A stretch of DNA of 58,791 bases, filler included, from Circinaria calcarea (Eukaryota): the NCBI GenBank assembly GCA_051942165.1. It is 10 parts of 10 records of this genome, joined end to end, with 100 filler letters (N's around TTAATTAATTAA, not from the genome) between each part and the next. Parts side by side here need not be neighbours in the genome. Positions count along the whole stretch, not along the records: positions 23,576 to 29,365 come from JAVECS010001785.1; 9 more parts are not named here. One strand, given 5' to 3'. The position numbers and the translations under genes were made by a program. Numbering within the stretch: position 1 is the first letter of the stretch; every line of letters starts with the position of its first letter. Under the pieces are notes generated by a model that saw only the letters and a list, made by a program, of their open reading frames with translations, had not been told where the DNA came from and did no database searches. Below are positions 23,576-49,659 of this stretch, piece by piece.

Positions 23576-24221
23576 TGAGACTTTCACAATGGCCACCTAT
23601 ACCAAAATCTTCCTGCAGTTCCCTCCTGACCAAGTTTTCTGGAATACCTCGACCCAGTTCTTCCTCTATGCAGATCCCAACGAACGTGGCTACTTCCCCC
23701 TCTTCCAATCCCTTGATGGGCCCGGATTCCTCCCTGGTTCAGGCATTCTCTTTGTCACGGTCGTTTCCTCACAATCCTACCGTGTCGAAGCTCAGAACGA
23801 CCAAATCACCAAGGAACAGGTTCTTGCGGTACTTCGAAATATGTTTGGCCCCGAAAATGTGCCGATGCCGACTGCTTTCATGTACCCACGGTGGAGCCTG
23901 GAACCCTGGGCTTACGGCAGCTATTCAAGCTGGCCGCCCGGGACGAGTCTGGAAATGCATCAAAATCTGAGGGCGAACGTCGGGAGGTTGTTCTTTGCCG
24001 GTGAGGCAACGAGTGCGGAGTACTATGGTTTCCTTCATGGGGCTTATTTCGAGGGGCAAGCGGTCGGAATGCAAATCGCCGGCTGTCTGGCGGGAAACCA
24101 GACCGCGTGTGCAGGGAAGGTGTACTATGAGGTCTTGCACGGAACGACGCCGCTGGAGGAGTACAACGAGACCAATGGGTGGGACGTGACGAGCTTCCAG
24201 ACCTATGGGATTGTGGCATAG
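23576..24221 (+). CDS. Flavin-containing amine (polyamine) oxidase, 3' part
   Basis: YTKIFLQF, PWAYGSYS and RLFFAGEATSAEYYGFLHGAYFEG motifs. Confidence 0.92.
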
Positions 24222-25436
24222 CGCCCTAGGTGGAAGTAGAGACAGCTAATGTTGTTAGATACGATGGGATTGTAATCTTAGATCGATCCAGACTTGTTGA
24301 TATCTAATGAAGTACAAGACATCTAGTCATTCATTCTCCACGCATCCTACTGCAAGTCAAGGCATTCAACGGACCCCAACATTTAATCTGAGTCGGTTAA
24401 CACTAAGACCGTTGAGTGTACTGTGACGCAATATTCCTATCGTTACGGAGACTGACGTTTACCCCTTGCAGTTCCACAGTTTTTCTGTTTAAACAATCTG
24501 CATCAACTGAAGGGCCCTCAACTGTAAACGTATCCGTCTACGAGAGTGGGGCAAGAGTGCATGAAAATTCCATCGCATTTCGTTGAGCCTGCCCGTAAAG
24601 AAAGATCGATCCTATTGGCTGTAGATATATCCTTAGCAGATACGGAGTACTCTGCAAGCGTATCATATGAAGCACATTCTCTCTTGGGATTGTTGGTTAA
24701 TGCACTGAACCATATCGGTAGTAACAATTGGAAGAGTCTTAAGGGGGTGGAAAGGAAAATTCCCGACGAAAACTCGGGGATGCGCGTGAACAATGGTGAG
24801 TGTTTACTAGCAGATTATTATGGTACGGTTTGTGGATTCATTTTGGGAAATGGTGTGTAGCTTGTGGGCAACTTTCGAAGGAGCAGAACGGTTAAGCAAA
24901 GAATGTTGTGTCCGCTTGTGGGGGATGGTCGACTAAGTAAGCAAATGAACTCCAGGGCGTGCACGTAAAAACTTACGGAGCGTTGTAATACATAAACCCA
25001 GTTTTTCAAGTTTCTTTCAACTATAGCAAGCTAACCGAAAAGTCGGATGTGGAAAGGCAAGGCCCGGCCCTGGATATAGGAGAGTAATTCCAACACTGAG
25101 TTGTAACTCCATGGTTCCACGGAAACAAGTATGGTTACTCATGTGATATATAATAAGTAAGGTCAGTACAAAAAGCTTCCTTCATCTCCGTTGCACGTTC
25201 CTCTTATTGCAGACTTTTCCTAGCAAGGAGCCTGATAAAGGCCTCCTTTTAAGAACTTTCATAATTAGACTCCTATGGTCTAGCTTCCTAGTGCCAGTTA
25301 CTGACCCTATCTCGGATTATGCTACAGCTGCAAAGTGTATTCTGGGACACTTCCGCGGTCAGCTCAGTCTTAAACCTGCTATTGCTTGCTGCCACGTAGA
25401 GATTCCAAGCTACTATAAGCTTTGCTGCTTGGCAAG

Positions 25437-25897
25437 TCAGACCTCTACCTTAAACAAGGTCAAATCGCTAAAGTTATATAAGCCCCATTTGTAGTCGACG
25501 CCATCATACTTCAATATCCTGCGGCATCAGCGTTGGCAGTTTTCTTTGAATTTTCTCCTCGGTAGGAAGAATCAATTTAGCTTACGTCGGAACTTTATCA
25601 TCGCTCTTTCCTTCAAGGCCTGTCGAGTGCGGCTCAGGCCACTGCTGTATGATCGTTTGGGAATCGGCCTGATTAATGGATGTCAGCTATCAGCGGACGA
25701 ATTTGCAGCATACTTGGAACCCACATTCCCCGTCTGTGCCCAAGCAATACCGGAGTATGTTGTCCCTGTCAATGTTAGGCTGAGCATTTGGTTGACCAAA
25801 TGATCCCGTAGACTCGTGAGGATAGCCTCTACCTACCAAAATCTACGGCCACTAAAATCTTTATCTTCCGGTCGAGAACTCTTTCATTGATGGCCAT
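25437..25897 (-). pseudogene. Truncated HSPA12-like Hsp70/actin-like ATPase (88 aa; exons 25897-25837, 25765-25725, 25668-25586, 25518-25437)
   Basis: Spliced translation MAINERVLDRKIKILVAVDFGTTYSGIAWAQTGNADSQTIIQQWPEPHSTGLEGKSDDKVPTILKYDGVDYKWGLYNFSDLTLFKVEV*. Shows the phosphate-1 motif DFGTTYS, QWP, KVPT and KWG, with three canonical in-frame introns. No recognisable remainder downstream. Confidence 0.85.
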
Positions 25898-26972
25898 GTG
25901 TGAAACGTCTGGCTGTCAAACCATCCAACTTAGGGGTAACAGTTCATGTAGAGTGTCCCAGAATACTATCTGTGATTTCAAGTGCTTTCGATGTCTGAAC
26001 GGACAAGATCTACAAATAATGGAACTTTGAAACCGTCCTTTATGGTTTTTCAGCCTCGTATCACCCACCTTTTTGAGACGAAGTCTTTGCTTGGGACAAT
26101 AGACATGATAGCCCCGAGGCTTTGGGTGGGGTGGCCCACAGTAACTGTCACGGTGCAACCCCATACTATTCGATTTAAGCTGTAGTAATATGGCTTGGCA
26201 CCCATGCGGCTCGCATATAGAGTATGTATAGGGTCCGGTACTCATGCCATGTTCGCGAATGACTAGTGTCACTACGATCATGTTATCCCACATTGTTCTT
26301 CCCCTTTATAGGATATATGGATTACTACCAATTCATATTGATGTCAAGGCAATTATTCTGTGCCATGATTGCACTTTCTAACAGTACCGAGGGATATTCC
26401 AATGAATAAGGGGGCTGCCAATTTTGCCTCGTCTGCTTGAACCGTACGAAGGAGTTCGTATTTAGTCTTCCACGATGTGACCTTGGACTTTTCGCTCAAT
26501 CCCGCCCCCGCTCATAGTGGAAGACTAAGTACGAATTAATTGCTGCCAATATGACACTTGATCGCCGATGGGTGGCTTTGCCTGACAATTCCATGCAATC
26601 AGCAAGTCGTGTAACCACACAGATACTTAATGCATTATGCGCGTGGATTTCTCATCACACCCCACACCCGGCAAAGTGATTGATAATTTGTTTCCCTATT
26701 GGATTCATGTAAGTAACAACGTATGATAAGCTAGGAGCTAGAGCCTCAAAATTTAAAGCTGTAACGGCCGAAATCTAGAGAGTCCTCGCCATAAACACAT
26801 AACGCATTCTTTTGGATATTGAAGCTGTGGAAAAAGCTCAAACCATTATCCGTTACCGATGTATCACAGGTGAGGATCGAGGAAACTAAGTAGTCAAAGT
26901 CAAAAGGGCACGCACGGTATCCGAACTTGAAAGAGATCAGGTACTCACCGTTGGGTGCGATTGACATAGAAT

Positions 26973-28829
26973 ATGGCAGAGACAGCAGCACCTTCAGATC
27001 TTATGACGCTTTGTAAAGTATGGCTAGGATTCATCCCCTCCCTCCTCTTGGATGTCTAAAACTGAGATAATGTGCTGATCTTATATGAAGGAACCGGATG
27101 AACTTAGAGTCCCCTTGGTGATTTCTGGCCCTAGACAGTCACAAGGAGCAGACATAGAGCATATCGAGTTGATAGAGGCGAAAGAAAAGCTATGGAACCT
27201 AAGAGAAGAAAAATATCGCTGGACCGAAGAACACGAGCTCTTGAAGGCCGATTTAGAGCAGTGCAAGTCAGCACTTTTCGCATTGCAGCCACATACTCAA
27301 GTCTCTGATACAACTATCCGAAACGATTTCGAACAAATCCACAGATCGATCGAAACATGGGTTTTTGAAGTCATGGCTGATACCGACGACAATGCGCTTT
27401 TGTATAGCCGATGTCGGAACCAGCGTCGAAAAGGGGGGAAAACAAAGCGGAAATCGAACCTAGAGACTTTTATAAGAGAGGCTGATATCTTCCATAAAGG
27501 GCCCTATGGGTGTTCCAACTTTTTGATCCTGTCCATAGTAATACAGTGGGCTCTAGACGAACATGTGTTCAAGCAAACGTATCCGATTAGTCTCTCCCCT
27601 GAACAGATCGCAGTTGTCACGGATATTGAAAGGGGTATGGGAAGTCTAAGTCTAGCTAAAGGTTCGTCATCTGCGCGATCAAGTGACTTCCTATCGAATT
27701 CATAGCTAACCAGGATTTAACAGAACGATTAGCCATAGATAAATGGAGATCTGAGACATTAACAGCGCTTGCCGCTCTTCCAGAAAGCGGAAATCGAGGA
27801 GCTGAACAATCGAACAGAATATTAGGTCAAGTAAAAAAGGATCTAACTTCCTACTTACTCGAGGCCGCTGCCTTCGCTAGACTTGAAGCAAGATTCCAGC
27901 GAGATATTCTAGATCCAGCTATCAAACTGCATCAGGACATGAAGACTTCTAGTCGCCAGTATGAACTAATCGTCGAAGACTTTCCGAAGGAGTTATCTGC
28001 ACCGCAATTACTCAATGAATGGAACCTGAAAGACGCTGACACATGGGGACCGGTGAAGAGAGATACCCAGATCGAAACTCTCTTGCATTTTCTACACCCA
28101 TCTCTTATCCGACTGGGAATTGGAGGCGTGTCCCGCTTGGTTTTGTTGAAACCGGTCGCTATTGTGACGCGTCCAGGAAGGAAGGAAAACTCGACTTTAC
28201 AGACCAAAAGGGGCGAGGTTTCTAGAGACTCAGCAGTAAGGCCGAAAAGGGGTGAACTTAGCGACTACCTCGATCACCTCACACCGTTATCGATCCAGCG
28301 GCATATGTCTCCAGAGAGAAATCTCGCAGACAATACATCCTTATTTAACGGGTCATCATCTTCTTCAGATGATGAATGGCATGGACCTGCATCTCTTCAA
28401 CATGACACCGCTGACAAGGATATGTTAAATGATCATGGTATTCCTACAACTCACCCTTCAGGTTTCACAAATAGAAAAAAGCAGTCGAAGAGAAGAGAGA
28501 AGAGAAGAGAAGAGGAATCATATGAGCCGCGAGTTTCGACTAAGATCGAAGTTGAGAGAAATGCAGGGAGTTATCCCCCTATTTCGTATGCGCGATTGGA
28601 AGAGGAAAGGAGGTCGAGTACATCTCTGACTTTCCCAGCTCGGGCTGCCACACCCCACCTAGATGAGAGGAGGCAGACCACGTTGCCGCCTGTCCGGGGT
28701 AGCTCCATCGATGTAGGAGGCTCAAGCTCTTTCTTTCGTAACTTCAACCTGAGCCAATCGCTACGCTTGAAGAATCCCAGCATAAATGGGCCTCCGCGCA
28801 ACTATGACCAGCATGGTCGGAATCATTGA
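26973..28829 (+). CDS. Hypothetical coiled-coil protein (573 aa; exons 26973-27017, 27091-27661, 27724-28829)
   Basis: Two canonical introns join the ORF-track fragments into one 1722-nt frame. Contains an N-terminal coiled coil, FALQPHTQVSD, KWRSETL, ILDPAIKLHQDM, LHPSLIR...VLLKPVAIV and a disordered tail. Extra upstream exons are possible. Confidence 0.8.
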
Positions 28830-29365
28830 ACTCGTGTACCTCTATAAAGACAATATCAGCTGGTATAACCAACGTTGCCTCGCCTTTTACATTCATATTC
28901 TTCGTTTCACCTACACTTTAGTTGTGACCGTAAATCCAGCTCCGTTCGATTTCCCATTAGCTCTATCTAATCTAGCCTTCGGGACCCCCCGGTTCCCCGG
29001 CCCCCCTTTTCCTTAGAAAATCCAAGAGAGAGGGGGGGTAGGATAGGATAAGAAAAGGATAGGACGGCAGAAGAGGATAGGAGGATGGGAGGACAGGGTA
29101 AGCTAAACACACGTGAATTAAAATAAGCAACCAGATCCAGATTCAGATCGATACGATAGGAAACCACTCTTTCCAAGGAAACCCCCTCCCCGGCCCCCCT
29201 CAAAAAAAATGGTGCCAGAAGAGCAAAGGCAAGGGCGAGGGCAAGGGCCAGGGGAAAAACGGATGGGTTATTTAATCCATCTGTCTAGTCGTTAGTACGT
29301 AGAGTTGGTTGAGAAAACTGAAAAGCAAAAGAACCTTGCCCAGTCTCCCTCCGCCAACCCCCAAC

Positions 29366-29465: not shown

Positions 29466-30960
29466 GGTCCCAGAGGCCCGTTCACGTAATGATACTGGCC
29501 AGCAAAACGGTACTGCCGGTCGTCGTTGAGCTGGTAAAACTTGTCGCCCCAGTGCCCGGCAAAGTAGAACCATTGAGTGGGAGCGTAAGGTGTCGTAGTA
29601 GAGGAGCGTAGAGTATCGGACTTATAATCGTATTTGTAAGTATGCGAATTGAGTACTGGATCCCATAAAGGACCGCGGTCGGTCTGGTCATGAAGAAGAC
29701 CGAATGGCAGGACATATGTGTGCGTGCCAGGTGTAGCATACATAGCGTGTGTACCAGTTGCAGAATATATAACAGGCTAACAGCCGTCAGTTAAGAGAGC
29801 ACTGATGGCAACATTTGGGACGGATTGCTTACTCTTTTGCCGTACTTCTCAATCGCATCGTAGCTGTGGGCGGCACCAAAATTATGCTCACTCAGGTACA
29901 CGGCTTTCGGTTTTCCGTTTTGAAATCGAACCATGGAATGTTCCCAATCCCCCACGTGATTGCCGAAGCGGATGTTGAAGACCTTATTACCAAGGTTGAA
30001 GCTGTAAAAGTAGAACCAGAATGCGTCGACCACACCGTTACCTTTATCCACCACAATAAGGACAGCCGGTGCACTACTTCGTCCTCCCATGTCCTGCCTC
30101 TTTGGGGGACTGTCGCCATCCTGCTCGTCTCTAGCTGCTTCAAGGATGGAGACCTGGGCAGAGACACCATTTGGAATTATATATGCATCACCCAATGGAT
30201 CTGCCTCTGTTCCTACTCGTTCTGAATCACTACCCTCACCGGCTTCATACCATCCCTCTCTTTTAGCCGCACTATCGATGATTTCTCCCACAATCGTATT
30301 CTCCCAGTGAATTGTGTGCGTTGGATCGTTGTGAACCTCATCTTTGAGATTTGACTTTTCCGGCACATTTGATTTTCCGCTTAGCCATTCCGGCACCTGC
30401 TCTGGATCGTCGTCGCTTGTAAGGTATACAAATCGACCGGCGGTCCATTTGTTGAGAACATCCAGATGCGTAAGATTGGGACTATATTCCTGTATCGATG
30501 TGTAATTCAACTTGGGGGTAACGTGTTGTAAGTGATCGGCTATGTCACAAGGCCAGAAATCTTCTCCGGAGTAGAGGTGGACAAGCGGTGCATAATCAAA
30601 TACGTATTGTGGTATTTCCCGCAACACCCGCTCGTCATGAGACCAGTTCGATGGTCGAGCCTTCCTGTCATGCCACTCATTGTCATGAATATGTGCTTCA
30701 TGCAGAACATCCTGATTTAAACGCTCTGCCTTGTGTCCTAATCGAATCCTACTTCGCCAGTGAGTAACACCACAAATCCCCGCCCACCTACAAGCGGTTC
30801 GGTCTGCGAACGAGTGAGAAGTGGCGATCCATCGAGGATCTTCCTGTGCTTCAATACTTGGCTGACCTCGAGGATTGAGCAAGGTGAATAGACTGAAGAA
30901 ACTTGCATAGCTTAGGCATACAGATAACACGGTAAACCCTATACGCCTCGGAAACGACAT
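29466..30960 (-). CDS. Vps62-like protein, 3'-truncated; intron 29777-29832
   Basis: YAPLVHLYSGE, VDAFWFYFYSFNLG, GNHVGDWEH, GTHAMY and TDRGPLWDP motifs. First in-frame ATG is 30960, followed by a signal anchor; the frame stays open to about 31278, so the true start is uncertain. Confidence 0.85.
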
Positions 30961-33006
30961 CTCATCGACGGACGCCTCCAAATTGCTTGATAGATTACTG
31001 GCGATGGTGCTGGCTAAAGGCGATGGCACTTGAACTTCATTCGCAACCTTGTGAGCTCTAAGGCCAGGGAAAGCGTCGAGACCGTTGCTGTCTTGCAGAA
31101 TATCGGACTCGATTGTTGTGGCAGGTATTTTGATGAGAATTGATTCTTCCGAAGAGACGGTGTCGCAACTTGGGCCGGCCTCTGGAGGACAAGAAGGGAA
31201 AGAGACGGCAGGTATGTTTGAGGCATCGCGTAAAGAAAGCAGTTGTTGGCAGCTATGGTATATGTCGAGGCCAGCCACTAGAGTTGAGAGATTTCAAGTT
31301 AGCATTCCATGGGCCCATTGTTTGTAACGCGAAGACGTGAATGAAGAAGCAAGCGTCCATGTCTCCTGGGTGGTTTCAGTCCACGTTGCCTGTGTATTGA
31401 AATGGTTCTGGCGCATCAACAGTGGCGATGTGCAACATTGAGTTGCTAAGCCCCCTTTGCAACTCCGGTAGCAACTTGGAATGATTGGAAACGCATGATT
31501 CCGATCTAAATATTTCAGAGAGAAGAATAGGATTTTTTAACAAGGCAAAATGGATGAATGGAAGATTGCCAACATATGTTGGAGTTTGGAACATTAATAC
31601 AACTCTACAAGGACTTACTGTTTGCGGCACGGCTTGCCTGTGCACAGTCTCAAAGACAACCGGTTGGATCCAGACGGTAAGTGATGGAGACCAGCTCACA
31701 GGGAATGAAGGAGATGAGTAAGGAAGATAAAAGTCAACATCGGACAGGCTTTGGATGCTGCAGCTACTGGTAAACTCCGAGATCGCCGAAGACTTGCCAC
31801 GCAAAGGTAGTACCAGTGGTAGCACCATCCATCAGATCGGGGCTAAAATAAACTTCCCGACGTTTGGCTAAAGCTTGTCTTACGAGGGGTTTCAGCCCTA
31901 CCAGAAGAGGAACCGGCTTCACAGAGTTGCCGGCCTCCAGTTGTATTAGATGTGAATTTGCACGGTAGGCATCATCTTTGAACCTTTGCGCATATACGTT
32001 CTGGCATATACCTTCGGGCATAATTCTGACTCCGGGTTAAAGCTATCCCGTGTGGTCTGGTTATAGAAAACCATGGCTACTTGTTCCAATATAGTTGATC
32101 TTAACATTATACCTAACACACCACAATGCTCTATACCATAGTAGTTCAACGGTTACCTCCAACATGCTGAACGAATGAATTTACCGGGGAGATACCAAGG
32201 AGAGGCAATAAGCTAGACCATGCTTCACGCTCAGAGGATCGGCGTGAAACCGACGTATGGCCAAAGAGCAGCGCATTTCAGCCCGTTCCGTCCATACTCT
32301 AAAGTCCGATGTTGGCACTTGGTTCAAGACTACGCATGTAGGGATTACTGTCCTTCTCCATCACTTCTAGGCTCGTGTTCTCGGTGTGGTCTCTATCTCA
32401 TTTCACCAAAAGTTGCATTTCTCAAGATATTCTAGTCGACCATCTAGGTAGAGGGCAGGCTCGTCACCCAGGTAGGATTTTACTCGCCGCCAAGGTGTAC
32501 ATTGTGCCCAAATCAGAATGCGGTAGGGCAACTCAGTGGGGTTGGAACTGACTGTTGCGACGCGAGAGCCATGTATGATCAATATAATATTCCTAGACAC
32601 CCGAGCTGGCCAATAGGTCTGGGCCCAGTGTGTGCGTAGAATAGCAGCTGATATACCCTTTACCCTTCAAATGTAAACAATTAATACGCGTAGGTAGTTG
32701 GTCGTGTGAAATTATGCTTCTCCATGACTGTTTTCAAGGGTACGGTAGTTATTTTCACTGAAAGTCATCGGGTTGTGGTCCTATTTTTAGGACACTGTCG
32801 CAAGGCTGACTTGGTGCGACACTAAAGAAAGTCTGACACATTTTCGCGCAACCTTCCCCTTCTCCCTCAGACAGCTCAGCCCTCAAATTTCGCGGTCCAT
32901 CAACGACCTCTTTGATTTTCATCACATCTCAGCCATCTCCACCATCTTCAATCTTTCCACCTCGAACATCACCGCATTCGATAGAGATTCTCACTTGCCC
33001 ATCACC

Positions 33007-47350: not shown

Positions 47351-49659
47351 TCACGCAAATGCAAATGCTATTCTGCGGTCCTCCGTAGAAATACCCATTC
47401 TGATGCAACAATTAAAACACTGGTCGTCAACGACGTAAGTGTCTTCCATTATGTACATACTTCCGCATGCGCCTAATACAGCACACCTAGATAACATGTC
47501 GCCACGGAAGATGTCAATGTCCGTCTCATTCAATCGATATATCCGATAGCGCTCCGTTCCAAGTTGCAACTGGCAAATACCTTGCACTGGGAAGCAAGAT
47601 TTTCTTCCACAGGCAACAATACCTCGAAATTGCTGGATATAATCAACGAGACTTGAGGGGGATACTTGTAGTCGCTGCGTAGTGGAGTTCCCTAATCCCC
47701 GAAACTCAAGGCGTATTTCCAATTTTCTGCTTTCTCCTTTACAATTACCAGTGGATACTGATAGGTTGCAGAAAATATAGCTGGAAGATCTGGACGATTG
47801 TCGTTACTCCAGGGGCGACGTGGATAATCTTCGAGAAAGTCGTAAGCCTTCGAGTCCAACTCAATTCGGCCTTGTACAATATTGATACGTCCGGTAGATT
47901 CTTTCGAGTCGGATAGCTCACGAAGAACATCTAAGTAAGCACACAATCCCCCTGCACAGAGAGCAGATACAATCTCGCTTTGAGGGCCCTTGATCTGAAT
48001 GTTGCACCCCGAGAAGAGCCGCAAGGCACGGAATAGACGAGCACCTGCTCCTGCGTTATATCTGTCCCATCGCTCGTAATTTTCGTCGGCATAGAATGAG
48101 TATAATACTGGATCCATTTTCTCGAATTCTTTGAAGTCTAAGTCGTTTATTTCGAAGTCCGTGTCGTCTTTAGTCCATCTTTTCTCATACTGTTCTTGAT
48201 AAAACAACTCGATACCGCTTAACGTAGGGTACAAGCCGTTTGGCACCGTAACGTCGCTGAGACAGCGAGCTAAGCTTATGATGGTATCGACAATAGCCGG
48301 ATAGCAGTACTGATATTTATCAGGATCATTTTCAAATCCTCGACACAAGGGGCAATTGCAGGCACTTCTTATAGCAAGGAGGTTCGTTTCATACATTGTC
48401 TTGGCGTGGGCAAAGCTTTTCCTGATACCTTCATCCATATATCCTTTCAAACTTGCGAGCTCAGGAAACCATCGGATGACATTTTGAATAAAACCTCTTC
48501 CATAAGAAGCACTACCGTACGTGCGGTTTTGCTGGGTATACAAGAAAGGGACTCCTTCTTCAAACAGTGCAACCGCCTTGAAAATTCTAGCGGCATTACC
48601 AATAGCACAACCTAGAGCTCTTGGCATTTTCAAAAGCAGTACCAAATCCGCACCAAAAGCGGACGACAATATGGTGTCCCAAGGCACCCGCCCACCAGTA
48701 AATACCGTGCATTCAATCAAAGCTTGACGTGGAACCAATTCAATGGCGTTCATTAAGACAAAGGTCTTTCCAGTGGTGTGTATTGAGGAATTTGTATGAT
48801 TGAATGCTGGATCACGCACCCCATCGTCGAAAATGATTAATAACTGTGGGAATTCTCTATTCCTATCTTCTTCTTCCCCTATGTTAGAGTGAAGTACGGA
48901 TCCCTGCCGGTTTGTTACGTTGATTGAAAGACCGAAAACCCATTCTCCTATAGCAGCCAAGCAGCCTGCATCCGCAAGTCCAATGATTGTAATGGACGCA
49001 AGCTCGCCACGGGAAACCCTTCCTAAAGCTAGTAAAGCTTCTGCAATGCTTTCTGCGTCGTGAGAGGAGGATTGCCGCGATTCCCACGGTCGCAGCTGTG
49101 ATGATGCAGAATAGAGATCCACATAAAACCTTACTCTGTTTGGGAAGGAGGTAGACGAAAGGATGCCGGCAAATGCCTTCAGTAAAGCCTTCCATTGTTG
49201 GATGGAAGGTTTCAGGTCTGCTGGGGCTTGACTTGAGTTAACCATCCCGATGAAAACCTCAGCTGTAATGTTTTCCTGATAACACTCCGTTAAGCCTCCG
49301 CAGAGAGCCAAACACACAGCTCCTTGTTCTGTGGTAGCTAAAGTCCGTACTACATTTTTCACCCTAAACCTAAACTAAAGGGTATCTCCAATGCTACGAT
49401 AAGAATGCAGACTTGCCATTGCTTCCTCAATGTGGGTACGGCCAATTGGAGCTAACTTGAAATTATTGCATAGTGCTTGTGCGACGACTGCGGTATAAGG
49501 GTCCACGCCAGCAGCTGAAAACCGCGATAATACTCCCACAGATGCCGAAAAGGTAGTGGCGACTAACTGGCCCCATTCAACCGATCCTTGTTGAGGAAAG
49601 GCACTGACGCTCGCTAGGATACCTGACGAGCTGTCATTAAAGGTAATACGGTTAGACAT
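47351..49659 (-). pseudogene. Disrupted large (about 770 codon) intronless uncharacterised fungal protein
   Basis: Three ORF-track pieces are collinear: an in-frame TAG at 49375-49377 and a frameshift near 47720; Cys motifs CNCPLC and CFNCC. Confidence 0.75.

Follow-up and report, generated by a model that had tools for sequence, protein, structure and literature searches.

The window analysed here is a stretch of 58,791 nucleotides from the ascomycete Circinaria calcarea (assembly GCA_051942165.1). One of its contigs, JAVECS010001785.1, carries the 5' end of an HSPA12-like Hsp70 gene and, on the opposite strand and directed away from it, an intact gene for a coiled-coil protein of 573 amino acids (aa), referred to below as the partner. 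We read this locus as a decayed copy of a conserved two-gene unit in which the partner gene has stayed intact and the ATPase gene has been lost after 85 codons, and we put the probability of this reading at roughly 0.6.

The Hsp70-like gene of the window is a 5' remnant

Four short exons make up what is present of the Hsp70-like gene, and the room beyond them ends at a convergent neighbour:

25449..25897, minus strand, HSPA12-like remnant of an Hsp70 nucleotide-binding domain (exons 25897-25837, 25765-25725, 25668-25586 and 25518-25449)
24222..25448, minus strand, expected place of the rest of the HSPA12-like gene (1,227 nt, no ATPase signal)
23577..24221, plus strand, flavin amine-oxidase gene, 3' part (Pfam PF01593 at E 7.7e-23 over profile positions 281-437 of 443)

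A sequence-only reading had placed spliced exons with VAVDFGTTYSG, KVPT and KWG from 25897 on the minus strand, and these could be read as proposed. From the ATG at 25897, exons of 61, 41, 83 and 70 nt, separated by GT-AG introns of 71, 56 and 67 nt, join into 85 codons with no stop. The phosphate-1 motif DxG(T/S)(T/S), which follows a hydrophobic strand, is present and reads VAVDFG and TTYSG on the two sides of the 71-nt intron. The HSPA12-like N-terminal segment W-P...KVP(T/S)...WG is present as QQWPEP...KVPT, joined to ILKYDGVDYKWG via the acceptor CCGCAG. All that the remnant covers is the N-terminal strand-loop (phosphate-1) region as far as the KWG motif.

With an HSPA12-like profile of 453 positions, built from 22 locus open reading frames (ORFs), we scored every stop-to-stop piece of at least 8 aa in the window, 3,244 in all. 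Remnant exons 3 and 2 ranked first and second among these pieces (profile positions 25-50 and 13-27, respectively), exon 4 matched positions 52-65, and the three matches are in order. Among the HSPA12-like loci scanned in metagenomes (see below) the closest to the remnant was L079, with 65.5% identity over 29 aa for exon 3 (E 1.5e-8 by tblastn in a small database) and 75-80% identity over 15-16 aa for exon 2. The ATPase gene of L079 extends for some 550 further residues, in which TVPAVWSD, SEPEAAA, DAGGGTVD and GGFG are found.

No such continuation was found in the window. The interval 24222-25448 contains 18-24 stops per frame with a longest open stretch of 98 aa, and nothing in it matched profile positions 66-453 (about 390 positions) above background. 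The DxGGGT phosphate-2, EPxAA connect, TVPAxW and GGxG adenosine motifs were absent from all six frames of 24222-25960, 30 pieces of 24222-25448 had no Pfam match, and tblastn of the L079 exons against the same interval gave a best E of 0.059, in an alignment that crosses stops. Pfam also gave no match for 36 stop-to-stop pieces of the Hsp70 region, which are too short to inform. The amine-oxidase gene, with its stop codon at 24219-24221 and its 5' side cut by the contig end, is convergent with the remnant and so limits the room for it. Because positions 66-453 are unmatched, the ATPase motifs are absent and only 1,227 nt remain before the amine-oxidase stop, the Hsp70-like 'gene' has kept no more than its 5' part in the window, and the pair there is incomplete. 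What had been called an Hsp70-like gene is thus real in its motifs and exons and amounts to only 85 codons of such a gene. The window copy, as it reads, cannot be an active ATPase.

Divergent HSPA12-like and partner genes recur at metagenome loci

HSPA12-like loci were collected by a DNA-pattern scan of a metagenome collection with the back-translated DFGTTYSG motif, which returned 121 loci, 80 of them with 3-kb flanks. A hydrophobic strand followed by DFGTTY(S/T)G, typical of HSPA12-like genes, occurs at 95 sites. The denominator for the upstream gene was the 37 sites with at least 1.5 kb upstream, which divide by N-terminal pattern into 16 metazoan-like sites and 21 others. A partner-family gene is present at 6 of the 37 (6/21 of the non-metazoan type), namely at L079, L064, L073, L032, L031 and L001; the count falls to 5 if L031 and L001, which share 94.5% DNA identity, are taken as one. 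A marginal seventh locus, L017, gave 0.0088 and 0.041 on two adjacent ORFs.

These matches were reached at several levels of sensitivity. Family members used in tblastn matched L079 and L064 beside their HSPA12-like genes. A profile from alignment A2 only (42 family members, including both window exon translations and no locus sequence) matched L079 at 2.4e-18 and 1e-17 (two exons), L064 at 1.5e-9 and L073 at 0.0076. The next profile round matched L032 at 6e-5 over nearly the whole core, before its own inclusion, and after L032 was added L031 and L001 were matched at 2.3e-16 and 7.1e-15, respectively. Profile iteration can drift, and the L031 branch was therefore checked independently, by comparing A2 with an alignment of the L031 relatives (A6) and through the ESM Atlas; both checks are given with the partner family below.

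In each case the partner gene is found upstream, on the strand opposite to that of the ATPase gene, with about 0.7-1.3 kb from first Met to first Met; such gaps were measured in L079, L064, L073, L032, L031/L001 and L017, and the window value is 1,075 bp. The partner profile had no match elsewhere in 360,719 bp of loci. The ATPase genes are intact at the paired loci, and the L031 and L079 ATPases match PF00012 in its nucleotide-binding part only, at 43.7 and 32.0 bits against a cut-off of 20.6. These results support the view that an HSPA12-like ATPase gene and a coiled-coil gene form a recurring head-to-head unit. The dedicated two-gene module that had been proposed from the window is accordingly borne out in part: the divergent pair exists at 6 of 37 metagenome loci, and it is not intact in the window.

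The two genes change at different rates. The locus partners are 13-28% identical to the window's family. Among the paired loci the ATPases are 37-50% identical to one another, against 20-28% for the partners where BLAST detects them at all. Between L031 and L032 the partners are 46% identical and the ATPase piece 91% identical (L031:800-2347 with L032:3665-5230, and L031:3197-4591 with L032:2275-2838, respectively). Evolution is much faster in the partner than in the ATPase gene beside it.

Further candidate partners were not counted: those of L006 and L038 (E 2.4 to 20), that of L033, which is a coiled coil only, and that of L122 (E 0.033). At L006:925-2539 (minus strand) the upstream divergent ORF, with a profile E of 2.4, contains AAKWRSLTV and SPMLVKYG...LLLKAFVV, which resemble the two hallmark blocks of the family, and this ORF may be a very divergent partner. 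When genome contigs were scanned with alignment A5 for HSPA12-like loci in bacteria, a single locus, L122, came up. This record, from a deltaproteobacterial metagenome-assembled genome (L122:3800-6520), has its HSPA12-like gene in short frames, like an intron-bearing eukaryotic gene, and a WRAQTV motif in the upstream opposite-strand ORF; it is probably a eukaryotic contamination of the assembled genome. In two metazoan-like HSPA12 ORFs, L036:1410-4730 (minus strand) and L054:1032-3332 (plus strand), 650-1,000 residues upstream of the ATPase motif are stop-free and match no Pfam family at E ≤ 0.01. This stretch may be a long N-terminal extension or just open frame.

The partner gene and its family

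The partner gene and the region it shares with the remnant are laid out as follows:

26973..28829, plus strand, partner gene (exons 26973-27017, 27091-27661 and 27724-28829; 573 aa)
27091..27661, plus strand, partner exon 2, coiled-coil segment and first half of the helical core
27741..28166, plus strand, second half of the conserved core, with KWRSETL (27741-27761), ILDPAIKLHQ, SS.QY, LKDADTW and LHPSLIRLGIGGVSRLVLLKPVAIV
28173..28826, plus strand, C-terminal tail of about 218 aa, Ser/Arg/Pro-rich, predicted disordered
25898..26972, no strand, shared divergent intergenic region of 1,075 bp, from the ATG positions

A divergent plus-strand gene for 573 aa at a distance of 1.08 kb had been described earlier, and the three-exon model agrees with this, with 1,075 bp from ATG to ATG. 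Its introns, of 73 and 62 nt, are GT-AG, and it has a single terminal stop and is intact. The peptides KWRSETL, ILDPAIKLHQDM and LHPSLIRLGIGGVSRLVLLKPVAIV reported for it are all in the plus-strand protein, the beta-rich LHPSLIRLGIGGVSRLVLLKPVAIV block at 28092-28166. Exon 2 carries the motifs LEQCKSALFALQP..QVSD..I, ILSIVIQWALDEHVF and YPISL and aligns with full-length relatives. In alignment A1 (32 sequences) the core columns 27741..28166 are invariant or nearly so, and the columns of the tail are poorly conserved. The core motifs, in order WRSETL, (I/L)LDPAIKLHQ, SSxxY, LKDADxW and LHP(S/P)xxRL...KPVxVV, are all found in the window protein, which on our reading of the alignment departs from the consensus at several nearly invariant A1 columns.

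The protein had been taken for an orphan, and this description does not hold. The exon-3 translation matched 39 proteins at E ≤ 0.001 in a word-indexed search, with a best foreign match of 3.8e-39, and 109 cluster representatives (50% identity) at E ≤ 0.001 in an exhaustive search, 43 of them at ≤ 1e-10 and 7 at ≤ 1e-30. All 109 representatives match residues 1-170 of exon 3. The cluster of the 3.8e-39 match holds a named entry, KAK3171508.1, a hypothetical protein of the lichen fungus Lepraria neglecta. Identity to the nearest relatives is 33-47%. Full-length relatives have an N-terminal coiled coil and a helical segment, which align with exon 2, and a variable Ser/Arg/Pro-rich tail; Pfam assigned no family to any member. 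Judged by its sequence, the 573-aa protein is a member of an unnamed, Pfam-less, widespread family of Pezizomycotina. Its copy is the only one seen here with a broken ATPase neighbour.

The relatives of the L031 partner are 'hypothetical proteins' of Pleosporales (Alternaria, Pyrenophora, Parastagonospora, Bipolaris, Ascochyta and others), among them SNOG_07853 of Parastagonospora nodorum and CC77DRAFT_946282 of Alternaria alternata. Thirty of them form alignment A6. Compared by hhalign, A2 and A6 matched with 96.0% probability and E 4.7e-9 over 245 columns, pairing WRSETL with WRRATI, PAIKLHQ with TAADLQR, QY with RY and LHPSIVRL with VFPCLEKF; the LHPSLIRLGIGGVSRLVLLKPVAIV block of the window aligns with the FCVFPCLEKFGDEWGE block of the Pleosporales group. 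In the ESM Atlas, the L031 partner and P0017, a full-length relative of 551 aa that is 31-40% identical to the window exons, are both nearest to one unnamed fungal cluster, at 0.95 each. Two pattern scans were uninformative. Patterns from A1 gave 194 metagenome matches, none of which was confirmed, and since they fit the window subfamily only they say nothing of rarity; a pattern for the C-terminal motif was too narrow, in that it missed the window protein and matched 11 of 42 family members.

Predicted fold of the partner and the question of GrpE

P0017 was folded with the 42-row alignment. The model is confident over residues 1-350, with 249 residues at a predicted local distance difference test score (pLDDT) of at least 90 and a predicted template modelling score of 0.65, and consists of a long helix at 6-48, a bundle of eight further helices up to residue 266, six short strands between 271 and 340, and a disordered tail. 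The part equivalent to window exon 2 is the long helix 6-48 plus helical bundle, with pLDDT >90. Window exon 3 modelled alone reached a pLDDT of 45.5, too low to be of use, probably because exon 2 encodes half the bundle. The tail has pLDDT <50 in both models.

The order of these elements bears on the claim that the partner has a GrpE/MIEAP-like C-terminal part, and on the rival explanation that goes with it, in which the atypical Hsp70 would have in the partner its own nucleotide-exchange factor of GrpE-like (or MIEAP-like) kind: with a long dimerising helix, a helical bundle and a beta domain at the C-terminal end, it would force the nucleotide-binding domain open in the way that GrpE acts on DnaK. 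In outline the P0017 model has that order, and the gene is linked to one for an Hsp70 nucleotide-binding domain. The comparisons by sequence and profile gave no such kinship, and the claimed likeness is not borne out at that level. PF01025 (GrpE) and PF16026 (MIEAP) were absent at E ≤ 10 from 54 sequences, that is from the 42 A2 members, among the matches listed for them (the first 25 of 45 families, the others being single matches), and from 12 locus ORFs. Compared by hhalign with E. coli GrpE, the A2 profile gave a probability of 0.2%; a homologue search for GrpE yielded only enterobacterial proteins of 88-99% identity, which are of no use for a profile. A profile search of PDB sequences found coiled-coil chains only. 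The GrpE fold combines a long dimer helix, a four-helix bundle and a six-stranded beta domain. Three fold searches were made with the P0017 model (Foldseek against the PDB, VIA wide and VIA second look), of which Foldseek found nothing at E ≤ 0.001; the rows listed by the three were generic helical matches with no GrpE chain among them, and they span residues 142-268 and barely probe the beta domain. Furthermore, the helical part of the partner has about 200 residues, against about 50 in GrpE (1DKG structure).

Two ESM Atlas queries, P0017 residues 1-360 and residues 215-516 of the L031 partner (L031:800-2347, minus strand), share their two nearest Pfam-bearing clusters. The first is an animal cluster in which 21% of the members carry MIEAP, at 0.81 and 0.82, below the 0.9 line under which a score is a lead only; the second is a plant GIL1_IRKI_C/DUF641 cluster, at 0.78 and 0.80. 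The two queries are only about 14% identical to each other. The shared clusters hint at a wider coiled-coil superfamily, and for two such different members the nearness of the MIEAP-bearing one speaks for the exchange-factor explanation. Taken with the negative comparisons, we regard that explanation as unlikely, though it fares better than the other alternatives considered below.

Points against a decayed copy, and the remaining alternatives

Several observations weigh against the locus being a decayed copy of a conserved unit. The truncation could in principle be an artefact of a short-contig assembly, yet 24222-25897 is continuous and contains no N. No partner was found at E ≤ 0.01 at 30 of the 37 sites, 14 of these being of the non-metazoan type. 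At L025 (834-4381) the ATPase is 80% identical to that of L031, and the upstream gene is a different one, on the same strand and outside the partner family. All loci were found via the ATPase, so that the count runs from the ATPase side only. L032, L031 and L001 entered by profile iteration only, and the independent significant loci number at most five.

Fast divergence and loss are also what would be seen if the pair were a conflict, allorecognition or cell-death module, with the partner as recognition or effector component, the ATPase as switch, and copies often lost or pseudogenised. The partner does diverge far faster than the ATPase (46% against 91% between L031 and L032), and for most other pairs of loci BLAST detects no similarity between the partners at an ATPase identity of 37-50%. 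In addition, one of the two genes is a pseudogene in the window, and the pair is broken in L025. Against this, no member contains a HET, NACHT, TIR, pore-forming or other death-associated domain, the Pleosporales relatives look vertically inherited, with genus-by-genus orthologues of 40-80% identity, and a coiled coil with a disordered tail would also give fast divergence. We consider such a module improbable.

Equally doubtful is the proposal that the adjacency is only retained bidirectional-promoter synteny, with no functional coupling of the products. Compact fungal genomes commonly contain divergent gene pairs, and many HSPA12-like loci have no partner. However, orientation and spacing recur among partners that share 13-28% identity or none that can be detected, and all six significant matches as well as the marginal ones (L017 and L122) are upstream and divergent, with none elsewhere in the loci scanned. 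That a pair kept in one orientation through such divergence reflects chance synteny appears unlikely. The weakest alternative is that the window Hsp70-like gene is complete and built of micro-exons too short for the searches: its first four exons are only 41-83 nt and tblastn missed exon 4, but about 390 positions would take up at least 1,170 nt of exon sequence, with introns on top, in the 1,227 nt that are left, none of five conserved ATPase motifs is found in any frame, and no piece of at least 8 aa rises above the window-wide background for profile positions 66-453, so that we give it hardly any weight.

The shared intergenic region and the rest of the window

The region 25898..26972 is presumed to be a bidirectional promoter. 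Heat-shock and stress-response (STRE) elements were counted in seven shared intergenic regions and showed no enrichment (0, 3 and 12 observed against 0.06, 3.1 and 15.1 expected), which argues weakly against a classical heat-shock role.

The contig of the locus is 5,790 bp long (window 23576-29365) and is the fifth contig in the window; the assembly is a fragmented one. The whole window is made of ten contigs, from 5,799 down to 5,779 bp, with linkers of N/TTAATTAATTAA, and since they stand in descending order of size and are joined by N, contigs that are side by side are not genomic neighbours. The remaining contigs contain ordinary filamentous-ascomycete genes (fungal rhodopsin-type domain, cytochrome P450, major facilitator superfamily, ankyrin, PfkB and short-chain dehydrogenase). 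Two long open frames, 29794-31293 (minus strand, 500 aa) and 47695-49374 (minus strand, 560 aa), have no Pfam match at E ≤ 1e-5.

Discussion

Hsp70s of the HSPA12 type are found in organisms as far apart as fungi and humans, and in bivalves their number has grown hugely. The window remnant shares VAVDFGTTYSG...KVPT...KWG with the genes of the 95 metagenome sites and thereby resembles the HSPA12A/HSPA12B type (PF00012, nucleotide-binding domain only), from which it differs in consisting of 85 codons without the phosphate-2, adenosine and connect motifs. DnaK with GrpE, and mitochondrial Hsp70 with Mge1 (PF00012 and PF01025), offer a parallel in that an Hsp70-type gene stands beside a gene for a protein with a helical coiled coil and a small beta part. 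The partner differs from GrpE in having no sequence or profile similarity to it, in its length, which is about threefold, in the far greater size of its helical core, in its long disordered tail, and in its gene arrangement, which here is one of divergent eukaryotic genes and not an operon. MIEAP/SPATA18 (PF16026) and the C-terminal domain of plant GIL1/IRKI (PF24994) mark the nearest Pfam-bearing Atlas clusters. Like the partner family, they are coiled-coil proteins with a C-terminal folded domain; the scores stay below 0.9 and neither family has a Pfam match in the sequences searched. The affinity of the window protein to the uncharacterised Pezizomycotina family is of another order, given the match at 3.8e-39 and the profile-profile link to the Pleosporales group. 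Nothing on an HSPA12-like/partner gene pair was found in the literature, judged from search results alone. The pair is an undescribed variant of the chaperone-plus-cofactor theme.

We propose the following for the two-gene unit of which the window would hold a decayed copy. In intact copies the HSPA12-like ATPase gene and the partner gene would be transcribed apart from a shared region of 0.7-1.3 kb. The ATPase would consist of an Hsp70 nucleotide-binding domain without a classical substrate-binding domain, and the partner of a coiled coil, a core of about 300 residues that is helical with a small beta part, and a long disordered tail. Because one orientation has been kept despite the divergence of the partner, we infer co-regulation, to which the shared region also points, and products that are directly linked in function. 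The ATPase is probably served by the partner, which may act directly on it or through it. Most likely the partner would be an oligomeric adaptor or regulator of coiled-coil type that docks through its folded core on the nucleotide-binding domain, and its disordered tail may bring in a client or may itself be the client. To direct binding between partner and ATPase we give a chance somewhat short of even. A nucleotide-exchange role for the partner is possible; no detectable kinship with GrpE points to it. In C. calcarea the partner would have to work with another copy of the ATPase or else be heading for loss.

A broader proposal is more tentative, and we think it on the whole more likely wrong than right: that the partner family is a dedicated, physically interacting cofactor of HSPA12-type Hsp70s, either an adaptor or a regulator of the nucleotide cycle. 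Filamentous fungi would have conserved it as a bidirectional gene pair, and the coiled-coil proteins of MIEAP/GIL1 type in animals and plants would perhaps be its distant relatives. A 2026 review states that 'The function of HspA12 is presently unknown' and places HspA12A/B among the Hsp70 paralogs that are 'mechanistically partially or completely untested' (PMC13580251). If true, the dedicated-cofactor proposal would give a mechanistic handle on this branch of the Hsp70s, whose function the review describes as unknown. A concrete candidate partner for it is a gene that has drifted to 13-28% identity and has still kept its head-to-head place beside an HSPA12-like gene. To this the window, an otherwise ordinary instance, adds a natural 'half-deleted' state in which the partner has outlived its neighbour, and which bears on how far the partner depends on that copy of the ATPase.

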